From Escherichia coli (GTDB lineage: Bacteria; Pseudomonadota; Gammaproteobacteria; Enterobacterales; Enterobacteriaceae): a stretch of DNA of 64,000 nt. Below are positions 3,361-44,131 of the stretch, piece by piece. The notes below the pieces were generated by a model, which worked only from the letters and a program-made list of their open reading frames with translations, was not told the origin of the DNA and did no database searches. Position 1 is the stretch's first letter. Every line of letters starts with the position of its first letter. The DNA lies in assembly GCF_024223415.1 (NCBI RefSeq), contig NZ_CP100500.1. One strand, 5' to 3'. The translations under genes and the position numbers were made by a program.

Positions 3361-4287
3361 TCAATTTTCGAGTTTTACTCTTTTCTCCACCATAAAATCA
3401 ATAAAAGCACGAACTTTAGAGGGCATTCTCACCCGTGATGAAACATAAATATAAAATCCAGGAAATGAAACAGCCCAATCCTCAAGAATCGGCTGTAACT
3501 TGCCCGCATTGATATGTTCAGCGATTGCAAAATCCAGATGTTGAATGATACCCGTTCCATTCAGCGCCATTCGTATCATGCTTTCGTCATCATTAGAAAT
3601 ATACTTACCTGAAACCTCTATTTCGAACTCTTCATTACCCCCCACAACATTAGAAAACTCCCATGCAGAGAGTGCACCGCTACTTTTATGCCGCAACCGA
3701 AGGCAATTATGGTTACTCAGTTCCTGAGGCGTTTCAGGAATACCGTGTTCTTTTAAATAATCTGGCGATGCCACAGTAACCAGTTTAATAAGCGGAGAAA
3801 CAGGAACGGCAGTCATATGCTCATCCAGTCCTTGCTCAAGACGTATGCCCACATCACAGCCGTCCGCAATAATGTTAGATAAACCGTCATCCATAATGAG
3901 TTCTATCTTTGTTTTGGGGTAACGAGTAAGAAACTCGCCAATATGAGGCTCAACAAGCATCCGTGCTGCAACACGGGAGGAATTTATTCTCAACAGGCCT
4001 GTAGGTTCAAGTTGGGTATCACCAACATCTTTCAAAGCATCATCAATTTGCCCCAAAGCCGACACCAGCACTTCATACAGACGCTGTCCTTCCTCAGTAA
4101 GCGACATATTGCGGGTCGTACGGTATATCAGCTTGGTGTTAAGACGTTCCTCAAGAGATTTTAAATTCTGGGACAATGCGGCCCGCGTAATACCCATTTC
4201 AGAAGCGGCTCTGGAAAAACTGCCGGCACGAACAATAAGCGCAAACCAGGCAAGAGAAGGCAAAATTGAAGGCTCTATTTTCATCAT
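3361..4287 (-). CDS. LysR-family transcriptional regulator
   Basis: 308-aa ORF with LysR helix-turn-helix and substrate-binding domain; divergent from the hydrolase gene at 4444. Confidence 0.85.
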   Translation of the reverse strand: MMKIEPSILPSLAWFALIVRAGSFSRAASEMGITRAALSQNLKSLEERLNTKLIYRTTRNMSLTEEGQRLYEVLVSALGQIDDALKDVGDTQLEPTGLLRINSSRVAARMLVEPHIGEFLTRYPKTKIELIMDDGLSNIIADGCDVGIRLEQGLDEHMTAVPVSPLIKLVTVASPDYLKEHGIPETPQELSNHNCLRLRHKSSGALSAWEFSNVVGGNEEFEIEVSGKYISNDDESMIRMALNGTGIIQHLDFAIAEHINAGKLQPILEDWAVSFPGFYIYVSSRVRMPSKVRAFIDFMVEKRVKLEN

Positions 4288-5607: not shown

Positions 5608-6750
5608 ATGACAAATAAACACCCATCATTGTTTTCTCCTTTTATGCTGACAGAAAAAATAAAGCTACGTAATCGTATCGTTATGGCTCCTATGACGACC
5701 TGGTCAGCGAATCCTGATGGAACCATCTCTGAGCAAGAACTCGAATTTTATAAACGTCGCTCACAAAATGTTGGTTTAGTAATAACAGGATGTACCTATG
5801 TCACGCCAAGCGGCATTGGGTTTACTCATGAATTTGCCGCGTATGACGACCGTTTCATTAACAGCCTTGAAAAGTTAGCAGCGGCAGCCAAAAGTGGGGG
5901 TGCTCCGGCTATTTTGCAGGTTTTCCACGCCGGTAATAAAGCCATCCCGGAGCTTGTACCAACTAACGATGTTATTAGTGCCAGCGCATCAAGCGTAAAA
6001 TCTGGTGACTTTATGAAGAGAGTGGTACAAAGCAGGGAAATGACTGAAAACGAAATTCAGGAAACCATTAGAGCATTCGGAGATGTCACAAAAAGGGCGA
6101 TTAAAGCAGGTTTTGATGGCATTGAACTTCATGGTGCGCACGGATTCCTTCTACAGAATTTCTTCTCCCCTCTATTTAACCAGCGTAATGACCGATGGGG
6201 AGGAGATCTCGAAGGACGTATGCGCTTCCCGCTGGCCGTATTACAGGAAGTAAAAAATGTAGTCTATGAATATGCGACAAAGCCCTTTGCCATCGGTTAC
6301 AGAATATCTCCTGAAGAATCTGCAACAGGGGGGCTGCGGATAGAGGATACTTATAAACTCCTTGATCGGCTCATTTCATCCGGTATTTCGTATATACATA
6401 CCTCGCTGGTCAGTATTAACGATAGCTACCCTGTTGAGTCGCCAAATGGCCCCCGAACTATTGAATTGATTTTAAATCATATTGCAGGCAGAGTGCCGGT
6501 AATCGCTGCAGGTAAAATACGCACACCGTCTCAGGCTCAAGAAGCAATTTCCACTGGCCTGCCACTTGTTGCGATCGGTAAAGGGCTGGTGATAAATCCA
6601 GAATGGGTGACTTTAGCTGAATCAGGTAGAGGCCATGAAATTCAAACAACCCTTAATCCACAACTTGTTCCTGAATTAACCATTCCGGATAAACTATGGG
6701 ATCAAATTCAGGCATCGAAAGGAACTGGCTGGTTTCCGTTAATGGATTAA
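5608..6750 (+). CDS. NADH:flavin oxidoreductase (Old Yellow Enzyme family)
   Basis: 380-aa ORF; LFSPFMLTEKIKLRNRIVMAPMTT N-terminus and HGAHGFLLQNFFSPLFNQRNDRWGG core are characteristic of the family. Confidence 0.85.
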   Translation: MTNKHPSLFSPFMLTEKIKLRNRIVMAPMTTWSANPDGTISEQELEFYKRRSQNVGLVITGCTYVTPSGIGFTHEFAAYDDRFINSLEKLAAAAKSGGAPAILQVFHAGNKAIPELVPTNDVISASASSVKSGDFMKRVVQSREMTENEIQETIRAFGDVTKRAIKAGFDGIELHGAHGFLLQNFFSPLFNQRNDRWGGDLEGRMRFPLAVLQEVKNVVYEYATKPFAIGYRISPEESATGGLRIEDTYKLLDRLISSGISYIHTSLVSINDSYPVESPNGPRTIELILNHIAGRVPVIAAGKIRTPSQAQEAISTGLPLVAIGKGLVINPEWVTLAESGRGHEIQTTLNPQLVPELTIPDKLWDQIQASKGTGWFPLMD

Positions 6751-16271: not shown

Positions 16272-16601
16272 ATGAGCAATCTGAATCCATGCATGACGTG
16301 TGGTGCCTGTTGTGCATTTTTCCGCGTCTCTTTTTACTGGGCCGAAGCCGACGATGCTGGCGGCACTATTCCCGCCAGGCTCACTGAACAAATATCCCCT
16401 TTTCACCGATGCATGAGCGGAACTAATCAGAAAAACCCCCGATGTATTGCCCTTGCAGGAACCCCGGGCAAAAATGCCTGCTGCACGATATATAAAAATC
16501 GATCGTCCACATGCAGAGAATTCGCCATGTCTGGTGAGAACGGAGTCGTCAATGAGGCTTGCAATCGTGCAAGGGCTAAATACGGGCTGACACCGTTATA
16601 A
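16272..16601 (+). CDS. ykgJ: cysteine-rich YkgJ-family protein (putative metal-binding)
   Basis: 109-aa ORF with CxxCxxCC motif ([11 protein letters not shown]); position matches K-12 order as recalled. Confidence 0.8.
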
Positions 16602-37306: not shown

Positions 37307-37864
37307 TTATCCTTCGATAAAAGCCATCCCTGTAAACGTTCGTCGCGGGTTGCCACGTTCAATCTGGTGATGGAACATTCGCCGCTGCGATTTCAGCGCC
37401 GCGCTATTTTCCTGTTGCTGCTGCTCCAGCTTCCAGGCAATCAGCAATCGCGCCAGCCGTTTGTTAGCATGCTGGCTGCGCTCTGACTGAACCTTCACGC
37501 TAATACCGGATGCCAGATGCGTGGCGCGTACCGCCGAGTCGGTTTTATTGACATGTTGACCGCCCGGCCCCGACGAACGCTGCGTCTCATACCGGATCGC
37601 ATCGGATTGCTCCTGCTCATCAGCGGTAAAACGCCCAATGCCCAGAAACCAGTTTTTGCGCCCATGATGAGGCCGATACGGACTCGGACAAATCCACTGA
37701 ATAGTGCCGCACCAACTTTCGCTTAATGCCCATGCGTTATCGCCATCCAGAGAAATCAGCGCCGAACGCAGCGTGTCAGAGTAGCGGCCCGTTTCTGTTT
37801 CCAGCACCGTTACCGCGACGTCTTGTCGGGCAAAAACGACCAACAGAGAAGAACGCTGCGCCAA
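37307..37864 (-). pseudogene. prfH: peptide chain release factor homolog RF-H, N-terminally truncated
   Basis: Contains the GGQ motif ([17 protein letters not shown]) of class I release factors but lacks the normal N-terminus. Confidence 0.7.
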
Positions 37865-38042
37865 TCGGGTAGCCGCGTCCGGGGTGTAAATCTGGCATCC
37901 CCACTACGCGCTGCATGTTGGGTAAATTTGCCGTGGTGTGTAATTGTTGGATCGCTAAACTCTCGATCCACAGGTCATCAGATGCGATGGTAAATACCGC
38001 ATCGGATAAGGGACGAATATATTTGCCCATGTACCATTCCAT
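37776..38042 (-). pseudogene. RtcB-like RNA ligase N-terminal fragment
   Basis: 88-aa ORF with [16 protein letters not shown] motif typical of the RtcB N-terminus; overlaps the prfH remnant in another frame, consistent with an internal deletion. Confidence 0.6.
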
Positions 38043-38347: not shown

Positions 38348-38800
38348 TTAATGTTGCGGTTTATATCGCATATAAAAATTAGTAAACCACGCTCCCCGGC
38401 ATTCAACGCGCTGCTGCTTAACTGTCTGAAAACCATAACGTTCAAAAAAGGGTTTTGCGGTTATGCTGGCGTCCACCGTAAGTTCGGATTCAGACTTAAT
38501 CACAGGTTTTAACAAAGCGCTGGCAACCCCACGGCGGGTGTATTCAGGGTCAACAAATAACATATCGATATAGTGTTCAACGCAGGTAATAAAGCCGACC
38601 AGTTTTGCATTAATGACTGCAACCCGCACTTGTGATTTCGCGAGTTTATCCTTCCAGCGAGATTCGTCAATCTGCGCCCAGGCGGCAATTTGTTGTGGTG
38701 AATAATGCTGACTGGCGGTCATCATAACCGCTCTAATGAAAATAGCGCATAGTTGCTGAAAATCGCCAGGCTGATAGTTTCTTATTTGTATGTTATTCAT
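38348..38800 (-). CDS. yafP: GNAT-family acetyltransferase
   Basis: 150-aa ORF; start ATG overlaps the dinB stop in an ATGA junction. Confidence 0.85.
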
Positions 38801-39852
38801 AATCCCAGCACCAGTTGTCTTTCCATTTGCGGATCCAGCAACGTCACATGCAGCCCCACCAGTCGCACACCGCGCCCGCCGCGGCGTTCATCCCAGGTTT
38901 TACGCGCGGTGGCGATTAAGTCAGCTTTATTCAGCCGCGGCCAGACGTGCTCCTGGGTGGTTTGCTGAAAATCGTCGAACTTTAATTTCACCCCCTGGCG
39001 AGCAATCAGTAAATCAGGTTTTACCTTTGCCAGACGGCGTTCAAGTTCCGGATACAGCCGCTCGATAATCGCTTCACATTCAGACCAGTGATGAATATCT
39101 TCCGCCATCGTGCGTTCCACGCCGACGGATTTTCGTAACCGTTCGCTGTTAACGTCGCGCTCGTCAATCCCCTGACTACGCTCCCACAAAATGCGGCCAA
39201 ATTTTCCAAAGCGTTTAAGCAGAATCACCAGATCACACTTTTGTACATCACCGCAGGTCCGCAGCCCCATCGCTTCCAGTTTTGCCGCCGAGACTTTGCC
39301 GACGCCGGGGATTTTTGCCAGTGGTAAGGTTTGTAAAAATGCCGGAACTTCTGCCGGCGTAATCACAAACTGGCCGTTGGGTTTATTCATGTCGGAGGCG
39401 ATTTTGGCGAGAAACTTTACTGGTGCCACGCCCGCAGACGCCGTCAGTTGCAGCTCGCTGAAAATCGTCTGGCGGATTTCCTGGGCGATGAGGGTCGCAG
39501 AACCGTGGCAATGGACGCTGTCGGTGACATCGAGATAAGCCTCATCCAGTGACAACGGCTCAATGCGAGAGGTGTAGCGCGAGAAGATTTCACGGATATG
39601 ATTTGAGGCTTCTTTGTAGGCGTCAAAGCGCCCCGGAAGCAAGGTGAGATGTGGGCATAATTTGAGCGCCATCCCTGTCGGCATAGCGCTGCGTACGCCA
39701 AATTTACGCGCGGGATAATTGGCGGTGCTGATCACCCCCCGACGTTCGCGGCTGCCGCCAATAGCAATAGGGATATCGCGCAGGGCGGGATTGTCGCGCA
39801 TCTCCACTGCGGCGAAAAAGCAGTCCATATCCACATGAATGATTTTACGCAT
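38797..39852 (-). CDS. dinB: DNA polymerase IV (Y-family translesion polymerase)
   Basis: 351-aa [23 protein letters not shown]...; a LexA box lies upstream. Confidence 0.95.
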
Positions 39853-39866
39853 TACTCACCTCTCAA

Positions 39867-39886
39867 CACTGGTAAAGTATACAGTG
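39867..39886. promoter_or_regulatory. LexA box upstream of dinB
   Basis: CACTGGTAAAGTATACAGTG, a CTG-N10-CAG SOS-box-like palindrome 15 bp upstream of the dinB start. Confidence 0.65.
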
Positions 39887-39922
39887 ATTTCAGGGTTTGA
39901 GAAATGCGTAAAGATTCAGCAT

Positions 39923-40690
39923 TTAGCGCGTTCGCTGCGAAAGCACCTGCTGCTTATCCAGCTTTTGCACCAGCGGCTGCACCACTTTATCCCCATGCTG
40001 ACCAAAGTATTGATACAGCGTATCGGACGCACTTTTGGTCAACACCATAATCTCAATACGCCGATTGCCCGCGCTTTGCGGATTTTTGGCATCCAGCAGC
40101 ATCTGGTCCGCCATTGCGCTTACCTGCATCACTTTATCTTCCGGCATTCCGGCCTCTTCCAGCACCCGACGAGCCGAAAGCGCGCGGTCACCCGAAAGGT
40201 TCCAGTTGTTGTAGATATTGTTTTTGTAGGCCATCGCATCGGTATGCCCGGTAATAATAATTTTATTATCGAGCGAGTCGAACACTGGCGCTAACTCCAC
40301 CAGCAGCGTTTTAAAGAACGGCATAATCTGCGCGCTGCCGCGTTCGAACATATTGCGATTCTGGTCGTCTTTAATCAGCACGCGTAATCCCTGCGGGACA
40401 ATCTCCATCTCCAGATTCGCTTCCATATGCGCATCACGGGCAATGGTGTTGATACTGGTTGCCAGCTCACCAAGCTCGGTGGCGGATTTCTTCTTCAGCA
40501 GCGCCGTTTTCTCGTTGACGTCGCGCGCTTTTTTCTCCGTCTCTTCCGGCACCGCCACGGTGGCAGGTTTTGGCGGATGAGACGGGCTGATTTTATTTAA
40601 CGGCGACAACCCGCCACCGTTGAAAATCGACTGCCCGTGCAGCGCGGCGATAATGCTTTCACGCTCGGATTTACTGACGCTGTTGACAAT
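39923..40690 (-). pseudogene. lafU: MotB-like stator protein remnant of a lateral flagellar (Flag-2) system
   Basis: C-terminal OmpA/MotB-like domain is intact, but the N-terminal membrane segment is replaced by read-through into the antisense of lfhA. Confidence 0.6.
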
Positions 40691-42392
40691 CAACTTTATC
40701 GTCGTCACCAAAGGGGCCGAGCGTATTTCCGAGGTTTCTGCCCGCTTTACCCTGGACGCGATGCCCGGCAAACAGATGGCGATTGACGCCGACCTTAACG
40801 CCGGGTTGATCAACCAGGCGCAGGCGCAAACCCGGCGTAAAGATGTCGCCAGCGAGGCCGATTTCTACGGCGCGATGGACGGGGCATCGAAGTTTGTGCG
40901 CGGGGATGCCATCGCCGGGATGATGATTCTGGCGATCAACCTGATCGGCGGCGTCTGTATCGGGATCTTCAAATACAACCTGAGCGCCGATGCCGCCTTC
41001 CAGCAATATGTGCTGATGACCATCGGCGACGGCCTGGTGGCGCAGATCCCTTCCCTGCTGCTCTCCACGGCGGCGGCGATTATCGTCACCCGCGTCAGCG
41101 ACAACGGCGATATCGCCCATGACGTGCGCCACCAGCTGCTGGCAAGCCCGTCGGTGCTCTACACCGCCACCGGGATCATGTTCGTGCTGGCGGTGGTGCC
41201 GGGGATGCCGCACCTGCCGTTTTTGCTGTTCAGCGCCCTGCTTGGCTTTACCGGCTGGCGGATGAGCAAACGCCCGCAGGCGGCGGAGGCGGAAGAGAAA
41301 AGCCTCGAAACGCTGACCCGCACCATCACTGAAACCAGCGAGCAACAGGTCAGTTGGGAAACCATTCCGCTGATCGAGCCCATCAGCTTAAGCCTCGGCT
41401 ACAAACTGGTGGCGCTGGTGGACAAAGCGCAGGGCAACCCGCTCACCCAGCGTATTCGCGGCGTACGGCAGGTGATATCCGACGGTAACGGCGTGCTGCT
41501 GCCGGAGATCCGCATTCGGGAAAACTTCCGCCTTAAGCCGAGCCAGTACGCCATTTTCATCAACGGTATTAAGGCTGATGAAGCGGATATTCCGGCGGAT
41601 AAACTGATGGCCCTGCCCTCCAGCGAAACCTACGGCGAGATTGACGGCGTGCTGGGGAACGACCCGGCGTACGGGATGCCGGTCACCTGGATCCAGCCCG
41701 CGCAGAAAGCGAAAGCGCTGAATATGGGGTATCAGGTGATCGACAGCGCCAGCGTGATTGCCACCCATGTGAACAAGATTGTCCGCAGCTATATTCCTGA
41801 TTTGTTTAACTATGATGACATCACGCAGTTGCATAACCGTTTGTCGTCGATGGCACCGCGCCTGGCGGAGGATTTAAGCGCGGCGCTCAATTACAGCCAA
41901 TTGCTGAAAGTGTACCGGGCGCTGCTGACCGAAGGCGTTTCCCTGCGCGATATCGTCACCATCGCCACCGTGCTGGTCGCAAGTAGCACGGTGACCAAAG
42001 ATCATATTCTGCTGGCAGCTGATGTGCGCCTGGCACTGCGGCGCAGCATTACCCATCCGTTCGTTCGCAAGCAGGAGCTGACGGTGTATACGCTGAATAA
42101 TGAGCTGGAAAATCTGCTGACCAACGTGGTGAATCAGGCGCAACAGGGCGGGAAAGTGATGCTCGACAGCGTGCCGGTCGACCCGAATATGCTCAACCAG
42201 TTCCAGAACACGATGCCGCAGGTAAAAGAGCAGATGAAAGCGGCGGGGAAAGACCCGGTGCTGCTGGTGCCGCCTCAGCTGCGCCCTTTGCTGGCGCGTT
42301 ATGCAAGGTTGTTTGCGCCGGGGCTGCATGTGCTGTCGTATAACGAAGTGCCGGATGAGCTGGAGTTGAAGATTATGGGGGCGTTGATGTAG
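40683..42392 (+). pseudogene. lfhA: FlhA-family export-gate remnant lacking the N-terminus
   Basis: Homology to FlhA starts at about residue 130 of the family (FIVVTKGAERISEVSARFTLDAMPGKQMAIDADLNAG); no proper start or promoter. Boundary approximate. Confidence 0.65.
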
Positions 42393-42605
42393 GCATGATA
42401 AGACGCGTCAGCGTCGCATCAGGCATCGGTGCATAACCGCCGGATGCGGCGTGAACGCCTTATCCGGCCTACCGTTCAGGCGCAGGTTTGTAGGCATTAT
42501 AAGATGTGCCAGCGTCGCATCAGGCATCCGCGCACAATTGCCGGATGCGGCACAAGTTTGTAGGCATGATAAGACGCGCTAGCGTCGCATCAGGCATCTG
42601 CGCAC
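42393..42605. repeat. REP/BIME array (about four REP units)
   Basis: Repeated GCCGGATGCGGCG and CAGCGTCGCATCAGGCA units in alternating orientation. Confidence 0.8.
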
Positions 42606-42607
42606 AA

Positions 42608-43105
42608 TTATAAAATGATACGCTCCCCAGCACTCAAATCCGTTATGTCTCCCGCCCAATTGATGGGATATAACCCTCGCGCGACATCGCGATGGAACGT
42701 TGAGAATGGCCAATCACTCACTTGCTTTACCCAGCCATGTTTTACTGGATTTATATAAATATAATCAACATGATGGCGATAGTTTTTGGTATTGCGGATG
42801 GTGTGCTCCCAAAAACGTGGTTGCCAGATATTTTTCAATCCACAAGCATGGGTGAACTGCTTTTTAATCTCCCGCCAGCGAGAGGAAAAATCATCATCGC
42901 TTTCGGGTAATGTCCATATGCAATGCATATGCTCCGGCAAAACTACCCAGGCATTAATTTCAAAAGGTCTGGCTCGCTTAACTTTAATAATGGCGTTACG
43001 GAGCGTCTGGTACTGGGTAGTCAAAAGTTGGCTTCGACGATTCCGTAAATTCACCGTGAAAAACCAGGTTCCCCCTTTGATGTAATACCGACGATATTCA
43101 GACAT
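42608..43105 (-). CDS. rayT: REP-associated tyrosine transposase
   Basis: 165-aa ORF recognised as a REP-associated tyrosine transposase from the translation; flanked on both sides by REP arrays. Confidence 0.85.
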   Translation of the reverse strand: MSEYRRYYIKGGTWFFTVNLRNRRSQLLTTQYQTLRNAIIKVKRARPFEINAWVVLPEHMHCIWTLPESDDDFSSRWREIKKQFTHACGLKNIWQPRFWEHTIRNTKNYRHHVDYIYINPVKHGWVKQVSDWPFSTFHRDVARGLYPINWAGDITDLSAGERIIL

Positions 43106-43184
43106 GGCGACTCCTTTTTCTCAACGGTAAGAAGAAAAGGAAAGGTCGGCAATGAGGTGATGGAATAACGGGAAAGCGGCTCGC

Positions 43185-44131
<947 letters not shown>

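Follow-up and report, generated by a model that had tools for sequence, protein, structure and literature searches.

The lafU/lfhA deletion scar of Escherichia coli and the possibly recurrent loss of the Flag-2 cluster at one nucleotide in the Enterobacteriaceae

Results

The segment 39923-42392 of the 64,000-nucleotide stretch of E. coli DNA analyzed here (the window) can be identified with high confidence as the canonical scar left by deletion of the Flag-2 (lateral flagella) cluster, the fhiA/mbhA locus of E. coli K-12. The same junction was found in other species and genera, and a recurrent, position-specific illegitimate deletion is favored here with moderate confidence over one ancient deletion. 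In its broadest form, the proposal is that the 35-kb Flag-2 excision recurs at one and the same nucleotide, as an independent event, in many lineages belonging to at least five genera of the Enterobacteriaceae, that DNA structures present in two conserved coding motifs, or else an unrecognized enzyme, direct it, and that it may leave two translatable chimeric ORFs which are either tolerated or used; we regard the chances of this whole statement as evenly balanced. The Flag-2 scar of E. coli is in itself already known, since it is the K-12 fhiA/mbhA scar (Ren et al., 2005), which about 75% of 5,426 complete E. coli genomes carry.

Identity of the locus and position of the junction

Based on the ORF listing and the annotation, the genes in the window occur in the order pepD-prfH'-yafP-dinB-lafU'-lfhA'-rayT-yafL-dinJ-yafQ. 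In the intact strain TW10598, a 38-kb Flag-2 cluster is located between the same neighbors, dinB and rayT/yafL, and lafU and lfhA are its two outermost, outward-facing genes; the pieces present in the window are collinear with both of them, which argues against a chance resemblance. The features of the scar are as follows.

39923..40691, minus strand: lafU', LafU codons 53-307 and stop (blastn to intact lafU, Pfam, comparison with full-length LafU)
39923..40708, minus strand: chimeric LafU' ORF of 261 aa, WP_000207556.1 (annotated by PGAP as lafU, an intact CDS)
40689..42392, plus strand: lfhA', codons 131-697 and stop of LfhA, an FlhA paralogue (blastn to intact lfhA, FHIPEP profile, PGAP)
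40653..42392, plus strand: chimeric FhiA ORF of 579 aa, old K-12 name fhiA (translation)
40689..40691, no strand: deletion junction, 3-bp ATC common to both parents (three-way alignment of the window, the lafU side and the lfhA side)
40680..40691, plus strand: surviving lafU-type repeat copy CTGTTGACAATC (alignment), the lfhA-type copy CTGATGATCATC being deleted
40675..40683, plus strand: left hairpin arm TGACGCTGT, the right arm ACAGCGTCA being deleted (inverted repeat at 6281-6292 / 6296-6307 of L003, the intact TW10598 cluster)
39868..39885, minus strand: LexA-box-like palindrome ACTGTATACTTTACCAGT, just downstream of the lafU' stop (read from the sequence)
39903..39876 and 39866..39839, minus strand: promoter-like hits on the dinB side (promoter scan)

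A preliminary description of this stretch had pointed to head-to-head lafU and lfhA remnants abutting near 40.68-40.70 kb, and had proposed an alignment with an intact Flag-2 cluster to map the breakpoint. When aligned with the TW10598 cluster by blastn, window positions 39853-40691 correspond to L003 5459-6297 on the lafU side (97.9% identity) and positions 40680-42391 to L003 41608-43319 on the lfhA side (96.0% identity). The alignment to the lafU side is perfect as far as 40691, and that to the lfhA side from 40689 onward; the two 5'-truncated genes therefore share the ATC at 40689-40691, within the range first estimated, with nothing between them, and neither aligns as a full-length gene. 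In comparison with TW10598, 35,322 bp are missing, extending from lafU codon 52 to lfhA codon 130. Since no other Flag-2 gene remains between the remnants, the lateral flagellum cannot be built from this locus. The large internal deletion that had been postulated between the two terminal genes thus corresponds to a single loss on the intact cluster, with the qualification that it may represent many independent identical deletions.

The scar in the window shows no structural difference from that of K-12 and Shigella: the chromosomal site, the two fragments (fhiA being lfhA' and mbhA being lafU') and the junction are the same, and the window carries a different allele, without yafN-yafO beside dinB. 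The K-12 and Shigella scar was reportedly described by Ren, Beatson, Parkhill and Pallen in the Journal of Bacteriology in 2005. The window allele is 100% identical to that of the pig isolate KV7, and the K-12 derivative TG1 aligns as one unbroken piece over the junction (96.7% identity); the PGAP annotations of KV7 and TG1 both agree with the reading of the locus as a scar. The name fhiA has been used for the lfhA pseudogene, fhiA and mbhA being the terminal remnants in strains K-12 and B (PMC3032704).

The two remnants

The lafU' remnant lacks 155 nt, equivalent to codons 1-52 of 307, and keeps 83% of its length. It had been presented as a MotB-like C-terminal fragment on the minus strand, which is correct in that its 5' end is lost and the OmpA-like domain is the only one recognized, although more of the gene survives than the word fragment suggests. 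LafU' has lost its cytoplasmic N-terminal segment, its only transmembrane helix and the plug, and the deleted codons include AWKVAFADFTLAMMALFMTLW and the FAD motif, the counterpart of the proton-binding Asp of MotB; the OmpA-like peptidoglycan-binding domain is kept. In the 296-aa ORF of the ORF listing (39923..40813, minus strand), the sole Pfam match is the OmpA-like domain PF00691 (residues 155-248), with no MotB_plug; the plug domain PF13677 was found in full-length LafU proteins and is absent from the remnants. Of the elements typical of MotB-type stators (an N-terminal transmembrane helix with a conserved Asp, PF13677 and the OmpA-like domain), lafU' retains only the last. The first 17 nt of the 261-aa ORF (GTG ACG ACG ATA AAG TT) are, according to its translation, lfhA antisense, and exactly the same 261-aa protein is present in the public collection.

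The lfhA' remnant lacks codons 1-130 of 697, which encode the first transmembrane helices, in keeping with the approximately 130 residues noted previously. The 590-aa ORF of the ORF listing (40620..42392, plus strand) matches positions 99-656 of the 657 positions of the FHIPEP profile, so that the N-terminal 98 or so profile positions are missing. The complete N-terminal transmembrane and cytoplasmic domains of an FlhA/FHIPEP export gate are therefore not present together, and PGAP tags lfhA' as "incomplete; missing N-terminus". The first 12 codons of the 579-aa FhiA ORF are lafU antisense, and exactly this protein occurs on 415 contigs of the public collection, a count based on a non-random listing of cluster members which gives no fraction of disrupted remnants. 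Only weak consensus matches were obtained in the promoter scan, including one promoter-like site upstream of the fhiA ATG (40627-40654, plus strand), and these are no evidence of expression. On the other side of the scar, the palindrome ACTGTATACTTTACCAGT, which we take to be the dinB LexA box, and the promoter-like sites of dinB mark the limit of tolerated deletion beyond lafU'.

Sequences at the breakpoints

The short direct repeat expected at the ends of the deletion is present in an imperfect form: the 12-bp sequences CTGTTGACAATC in lafU and CTGATGATCATC in lfhA match at nine of their 12 positions and are exact at the crossover only in the ATC. Of random lafU x lfhA junction pairs, 0.12% show a 9/12 match with three exact nucleotides at the junction. 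Exact 11-bp repeats common to lafU and lfhA exist, yet the deletion did not use them. In the summary of Ren et al. (2005) given by De Maayer et al. (2020; PMC6993521), the deletion lies within lfhA and lafU and has direct repeats at its ends; the 12-bp repeat is consistent with this summary and may be the repeat of Ren et al.

In the intact alleles, a strong hairpin (DNA fold of -10.5 kcal/mol, z = -3.9) carries the lafU breakpoint at its tip; this hairpin is one of just five of its kind in the 46-kb locus, the five together covering 0.22% of it. The lfhA breakpoint falls on the edge of the perfect 10-bp palindrome GATGATCATC, which contains GATC; perfect palindromes, including this one, cover 0.8% of the locus, and these palindrome statistics were defined post hoc, with the sequences already seen. 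DNA folding yielded no significant fold at the lfhA-side breakpoint. The hairpin of Kluyvera ascorbata is weaker (7/9), yet the junction is the same.

By eye, the breakpoints bear no convincing likeness to dif/Xer, hix, IS608-type or REP sites. An excision element of the integrase/att type is not supported: no recombinase or integrase is annotated among the genes of the TW10598 cluster, and the breakpoint sites, again compared by eye, share just nine of 12 bases and no common arms. RayT was rejected as the deletion agent, since rayT adjoins lfhA in E. coli only and not in Kluyvera or Atlantibacter.

Distribution of the two states in E. coli

A 101-bp probe spanning the junction was contiguous in 4,085 of the 5,426 complete E. 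coli genomes (about 75%), in comparison with about 169 records showing other configurations at the locus, and the 2.6-kb scar region was contiguous in 4,071 genomes. The Flag-2-positive genomes amount to about 25% in both E. coli and Escherichia albertii. Scar twins with near-identical flanks were found for three of three intact E. coli lineages. Within ST131, the flanks of the scar strains S1-KEN and SE15 match those of the intact strain EC958 at 16,334/16,334 nt and 16,676/16,679 nt, that is, with three differences in 33 kb. When scars were constructed in silico from the intact TW10598 and SJ2D, they agreed with real scar genomes at 99.9% over 2,540 nt, and these lineages differ from one another by 3-6%.

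The flank alleles are common to scar and intact genomes and are freely shared between them. Diversity among the scar alleles does not dip around the junction, as it would if a single origin had left its hitch-hiking mark; on the lafU side, the first 68 nt show no polymorphism. Among the intact alleles, there is no step in divergence at the breakpoints of the kind left by a horizontally moving cluster. The interior of the cluster and the flanks diverge between strains to a similar degree, which indicates that Flag-2 is a long-resident cluster and not a recent import.

Distribution in other species and genera

The same junction was identified in E. albertii, K. ascorbata, two Atlantibacter species, Citrobacter amalonaticus and Dryocola. 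A motif scan of genome contigs, using patterns which included the universal FlhA motif DAMPGKQM, gave three close loci among the matches listed. Outside Escherichia, the LafU remnants start with (M/V)TTIKL or MKL followed by IVNSVS, and the DNA junction lies at the same nucleotide. The flanks in these genera are saturated at synonymous sites with respect to E. coli (dS about 1), and the chimeric codons upstream and the predicted starts vary between genera. The scar coexists with intact loci in K. ascorbata, A. hermannii, C. amalonaticus and E. albertii, every species examined holding both. Atlantibacter was considered as a scar-only genus for a clean test of selection and was ruled out by the full-length LafU present in A. 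hermannii and A. subterraneus. In E. albertii, the 50 nt of the lafU side next to the junction contain three fixed differences, which makes an interspecies transfer of the scar unlikely, and lfhA' carries a frame-breaking 22-bp deletion; in Dryocola, there is no gene call for lfhA'.

Truncated lfhA and lafU have been recorded in 531 of 4,028 strains, mainly in taxa which also have complete loci, in the relevant passages of De Maayer et al. (2020; PMC6993521), and the en bloc lfhA-lafU deletions described there for the Enterobacterales fit the pattern observed here in Citrobacter, Kluyvera and Atlantibacter. These passages do not include the junction at the same nucleotide across genera or the identical flanks of the two states within clones. 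Table 1 of the same paper gives Atlantibacter as lacking Flag-2, whereas full-length LafU was found here in two of its species.

Discussion

Repeated deletion or one ancient deletion

According to the reading favored here, the Flag-2 cluster would be lost by illegitimate recombination, independent of RecA and directed by short homologies together with DNA secondary structure, and the same deletion has probably been repeated in place in many E. coli lineages and in other genera. This repetition would stem from the fact that the breakpoint sequences code for highly conserved protein motifs. Deletion hot spots in lacI and the hot spots of lambda bio transducing phages are known examples of deletions associated with short homology and palindromes. 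The Flag-2 deletion would resemble such hot spots of short-homology illegitimate recombination in ending at short imperfect direct repeats beside palindromic DNA and in having one dominant junction. It differs from lacI and lambda bio in that the repeats are 35 kb apart and share three exact bases, and in that its recurrence is deduced from comparative data. At this distance, an exact microhomology of 3 bp offers little basis for an event to recur, and one universal junction is equally predicted by a single origin.

A single ancient deletion, which occurred before the genera split or once per species and has since coexisted with the intact cluster as a long-lived polymorphism of presence and absence, is in our view rather unlikely. 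Homologous recombination with conspecific intact strains would replace the remnants up to the homology border, which would give rise to the species-typical, undecayed flanks; a donor fragment ending in 35 kb of heterology would be trimmed to that border, so that replacement would reach exactly to the junction. The predominance of one junction among the E. coli losses, its identity across genera and the free sharing of flank alleles between the two states are all consistent with this scenario, and the similar proportion of Flag-2-positive genomes in E. coli and E. albertii suggests a maintained balance. However, both states would have had to survive every speciation in at least five genera, with flanks at a dS of about 1, and on such a time scale null alleles should turn over, resulting in a different junction in each genus. 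The ST131 clone-mates also differ in state with almost no change in their flanks, whereas import from an unrelated donor should leave tracts of SNPs, and the fixed differences of E. albertii argue against the spread of a scar between species. Against recurrent deletion, the traceless changes of state in E. coli could stem from short recombination tracts within the unusually conserved blocks beside the junction. In a bioRxiv paper on a 10-year ST131 infection which mentions Flag-2, no deletion is reported.

Are the remnants selected genes?

Neither remnant ORF contains a stop or an indel in any of the 10 distinct E. coli scar alleles analyzed, which differ by up to 6.6%, and dN/dS among the scar alleles is 0.026 for lfhA' and 0.033 for lafU'. 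Both ORFs are also open in Kluyvera, C. amalonaticus and two Atlantibacter species, and the comparison of lfhA' between the latter two gives a dN/dS of 0.026 at a dS of 1.24. Along with the detection of fhiA mRNA in O157:H7 by qRT-PCR (PMC6863780) and the annotation of lafU' as an intact CDS by PGAP, these data would fit the idea that the chimeric 579-aa FhiA and 261-aa LafU' are expressed and under purifying selection, and that selection for this pair explains the single junction. We consider this improbable. The intact alleles have a similarly low dN/dS (0.043) and the scar alleles are near-identical to them, so that the signal can be inherited from the functional gene, and every species with scars also holds intact copies as a possible source. 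In addition, LafU' has neither a signal peptide nor a transmembrane helix with which to reach the periplasm, where the OmpA-like domain would act, the chimeric upstream codons and predicted starts differ across genera, decayed scars occur in E. albertii and Dryocola, and no phenotype is reported in the literature consulted on the fhiA/lafU remnants. With recurrent deletion, the ORFs would be open because most scars are young, or because recombination with intact alleles has overwritten them, and function would play no part.

The reverse history, in which the scar is the original state and Flag-2 a mobile island inserting site-specifically, would agree with the untouched flanks of the ST131 clone-mates and with the "Flag-2 insertion" mapped to ST131 subclade B2 (Ben Zakour et al., as cited in a passage of PMC5369007), but it is hardly credible, since as an ancestral state it is contradicted by the anatomy of the genes: only the sequence within the cluster completes both fragments to full-length, conserved lafU and lfhA, so that no cassette can have arrived between truncated genes except by homologous replacement, the cluster has no annotated integrase or recombinase, and its interior diverges between strains as the flanks do.

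Significance

The scar in itself is of small import, being a textbook K-12 pseudogene pair and a marker of Flag-2 loss, and the comparative pattern is more useful than the scar. The ST131 literature words the difference in state as a Flag-2 "insertion" (in the passage of PMC5369007 citing Ben Zakour et al.). If the recurrence at the same nucleotide is true, whether an E. coli strain has lateral flagella, and likewise this insertion on which ST131 subclades are defined, would have to be re-read in terms of repeated loss, and the annotation pipelines which call lafU' intact would need a note. The locus would then also be a natural, easily assayed model of long-range, hairpin-guided illegitimate recombination.

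Remnant Genes and Deletion Junction

The window is a stretch of E. coli chromosome whose genes occur in the order pepD, prfH', yafP, dinB, lafU', lfhA', rayT, yafL, dinJ-yafQ, and the stretch 39853-42450 is 100% identical to that of the pig isolate KV7 and 96.7% identical to that of TG1, a K-12 derivative. Pfam detected only an OmpA-like domain in the minus-strand ORF ending at 39923, and a FHIPEP match covering profile positions 99-656 of 657 in the plus-strand ORF ending at 42392. NCBI labels these remnants "lafU" and "FlhA, incomplete, missing N-terminus." Both can be translated as chimeric ORFs:

39923-40708, minus strand, lafU' chimeric ORF of 261 aa, whose first codons are antisense of lfhA
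40653-42392, plus strand, lfhA' chimeric ORF, whose first codons are antisense of lafU

The 261-aa ORF is annotated by PGAP as an intact CDS, "lafU," with a WP accession, and lfhA' as a pseudogene.

The ETEC strain TW10598 carries a complete Flag-2 (lateral flagella) cluster between the same neighbors, and its outermost genes, lafU (307 aa) and lfhA (697 aa), are both transcribed outward. Alignment with this cluster confirmed that the truncated pair is a Flag-2 deletion scar, as proposed in the preliminary description: window 39853-40691 corresponds to the end of lafU and 40680-42391 to that of lfhA. Since perfect matching extends through 40691 on the lafU side and begins at 40689 on the lfhA side, the crossover lies in the common ATC at 40689-40691, and 35,322 bp are deleted relative to TW10598. 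This ATC closes, at its 3' end, a 12-bp direct repeat with imperfect copies (CTGTTGACAATC vs. CTGATGATCATC, 9/12 matching), a level of similarity reached by just 0.12% of randomly drawn lafU x lfhA junction pairs. Codons 1-130 of lfhA are absent, in agreement with the loss of about 130 residues noted previously, along with codons 1-52 of lafU, which hold its sole transmembrane helix as well as the FAD motif, the counterpart of the essential Asp in MotB. The locus is almost certainly a Flag-2 deletion scar that arose through illegitimate recombination between short, imperfectly matching repeats.

In the intact alleles, the lafU breakpoint is located at the apex of a hairpin whose arms are TGACGCTGT and ACAGCGTCA (DNA fold -10.5 kcal/mol, z = -3.9), one of only five of such quality in the 46-kb locus, jointly 0.22% of its bases. 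The lfhA breakpoint falls at the border of a perfect palindrome of 10 bp, GATGATCATC, and such palindromes make up 0.8% of the locus; as both categories were picked post hoc, with the sequences already seen, their combined improbability should be taken as no more than indicative. C. farmeri and A. hermannii retain intact hairpin arms; those of K. ascorbata are weaker (7/9). Exact 11-bp repeats common to lafU and lfhA are present and were not used by the deletion. One of these, GATGCCCGGCA, occurs at 6368-6378 and 41688-41698 of the TW10598 locus, some 70 nt rightward of the two breakpoints and nearly in register (71 vs. 69 nt); such a repeat is no more than chance predicts for genes of these lengths, and it does not serve as a deletion endpoint.

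Distribution in E. coli and Other Genera

The scar was already known: De Maayer et al. (2020; PMC6993521), summarizing Ren et al. (2005), report this very lfhA-lafU deletion with terminal direct repeats in many Escherichia and Shigella, and the E. coli W genome paper (PMC3032704) gives fhiA and mbhA (the K-12 names of lfhA' and lafU') as what is left of the two cluster ends in K-12 and B. A 101-bp junction probe was contiguous in 4,085 of the 5,426 complete E. coli genomes (75%); based on arithmetic on the probe counts, its halves lie apart, with both ends intact, in about 1,160 records, and about 170 show other configurations. Another, rare Flag-2 deletion is represented by an E. coli protein (P0043, 429 aa, 10 contigs) in which a proline/glutamine-rich N-terminus that looks like a hook-length control protein of the FliK/LafE type is joined to LafU near residue 85; other junctions therefore do arise, at low frequency.

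In the E. albertii type strain (NBRC 107761, locus L024), the junction is identical, the flanks are ~91% identical to the window, and the lafU side shows three fixed differences within 50 nt; the lafU'-dinB spacer contains extra inserted sequence, and the frame of lfhA' is broken by a deletion of 22 bp (L024 ~3926-3934; equivalent to window ~41622-41643). A protein search with the 261-aa remnant identified truncated LafU proteins lacking the plug domain in Citrobacter gillenii, C. amalonaticus, Citrobacter sp., Dryocola, Kluyvera ascorbata, Kluyvera sp., Atlantibacter hermannii, and Atlantibacter sp. All of them start with "(M/V)TTIKL" or "MKL" followed by "IVNSVS," that is, antisense lfhA joined to LafU at the same residue. 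The DNA junction is at the same nucleotide position in each case (for example, Kluyvera GCTGTTAACAATC|AACTTCATCGTGGTG; A. hermannii GCTGTTGACGATT|AACTTCATCGTTGTG), and synonymous divergence between genera is saturated (dS ~1 or more). Neither remnant ORF is interrupted in Kluyvera, C. amalonaticus, or the two Atlantibacter species. Every species examined also has full-length copies: K. ascorbata, C. amalonaticus, A. hermannii, A. subterraneus, and, according to PMC11420993, E. albertii. Within species, the flanks of scar and intact loci are ~99% identical, and the alignment begins exactly at the junction.

Scar and Intact Alleles in E. coli

Ten distinct scar alleles, diverging by up to 6.6%, showed no stop and no indel in either remnant (567 and 255 codons). 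Their dN/dS (Nei-Gojobori) is 0.026 for lfhA' (dS 0.22) and 0.033 for lafU', no higher than in the intact alleles (0.043 for lfhA, 0.055 for lafU). The scar alleles do not form a clade: the lfhA' distance is 0.1% between K-12 and intact TW10598 and 0.1% between MEI2BO and intact SJ2D/O111, and lfhA' of S1-KEN is identical to that of intact EC958. Scar and intact alleles share haplotypes as far as the polymorphic site nearest the junction, at a distance of 12 nt; no valley of diversity was found at the junction among scar alleles. The diversity of lfhA within E. coli is unusually high (dS 0.22; 2-9% nucleotide diversity per 50-nt window) and about equals its distance to E. albertii (window 40689-42389 vs. 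the compared loci L002-L016 and L024).

The scar strain S1-KEN and the intact strain EC958 (ST131 clade C) show no difference in 16,334 nt on the dinB side and 3 differences in 16,679 nt on the rayT side. The S1-KEN scar was also found, at 100% identity over 5,261 nt, in at least 60 other genomes and in SE15, a strain of ST131 clade A. In the ST131 literature (PMC5369007, citing Ben Zakour et al.), the difference is worded as subclade B2 having a "Flag-2 insertion." In silico scars, obtained by joining the lafU' and lfhA' of each of two more intact genomes at the canonical junction, both match real scar genomes, ETEC H10407 included, with 99.9% identity along the entire 2,540 nt. Together with the ST131 pair, these matches indicate that three of three intact lineages, 3-6% apart, have scar twins that share the haplotypes of both flanks. 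In comparisons of intact strains, no divergence step was found at the breakpoints, and since the interior of the cluster and its flanks diverge to about the same degree, the cluster is a long-term resident rather than a recent import.

Neighboring Features

The yafN-yafO toxin-antitoxin pair lies between dinB and yafP in K-12, TW10598, and O157:H7, but is missing in the window, where dinB (38797-39852, minus strand) is followed directly by yafP (38348-38800, minus strand) with a 4-nt overlap; it is also missing in KV7, Nissle, strain 488, ST131, SJ2D, Kluyvera, and C. amalonaticus. A second small deletion scar 2 kb away (37307-38042) joins a prfH fragment without its N-terminus to an rtcB-family fragment without its C-terminus, as in K-12 and KV7. 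Both rtcB (1,140 nt) and prfH (615 nt) are complete in ST131, and rtcB is full-length-sized in SJ2D (where the stretch compared ends before prfH). REP-like palindromic repeat clusters (42393-42600 and 43100-43400) flank rayT (42608-43105, minus strand). KV7 carries IS1397 between lfhA' and rayT, which is absent from the window, the scar being otherwise identical.

History of the Scar

We lean toward recurrent in-place deletion at a structural hot spot, which would yield the same junction in diverged genera, both states in every species examined, and traceless clone-mates, the ORFs being undecayed since the scars would be young; points against it are that the microhomology is feeble, that the two ends lie 35 kb apart, and that no responsible agent was found. 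One ancient deletion kept as a polymorphism, its flanks continually replaced up to the homology border, would account for the single junction and the common allele pool, but seems a good deal less probable, as both states must have outlived each speciation event across the genera and imported DNA must have left no donor SNPs in the flanks. Selection on the chimeric ORFs, which is compatible with either recurrent or ancient deletion, fits the low dN/dS and the fhiA mRNA detectable in O157:H7 according to a paper treating fhiA as a working flagellar gene (PMC6863780), but is improbable: intact alleles could have passed on the low dN/dS, LafU' lacks any route out of the cytoplasm, and decayed scars exist (E. 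albertii, Dryocola).

The scar is real and was read correctly in the preliminary description. The identity of its junction across genera and the traceless changes of state, unexplained in the literature consulted, moderately raise the interest of this locus.
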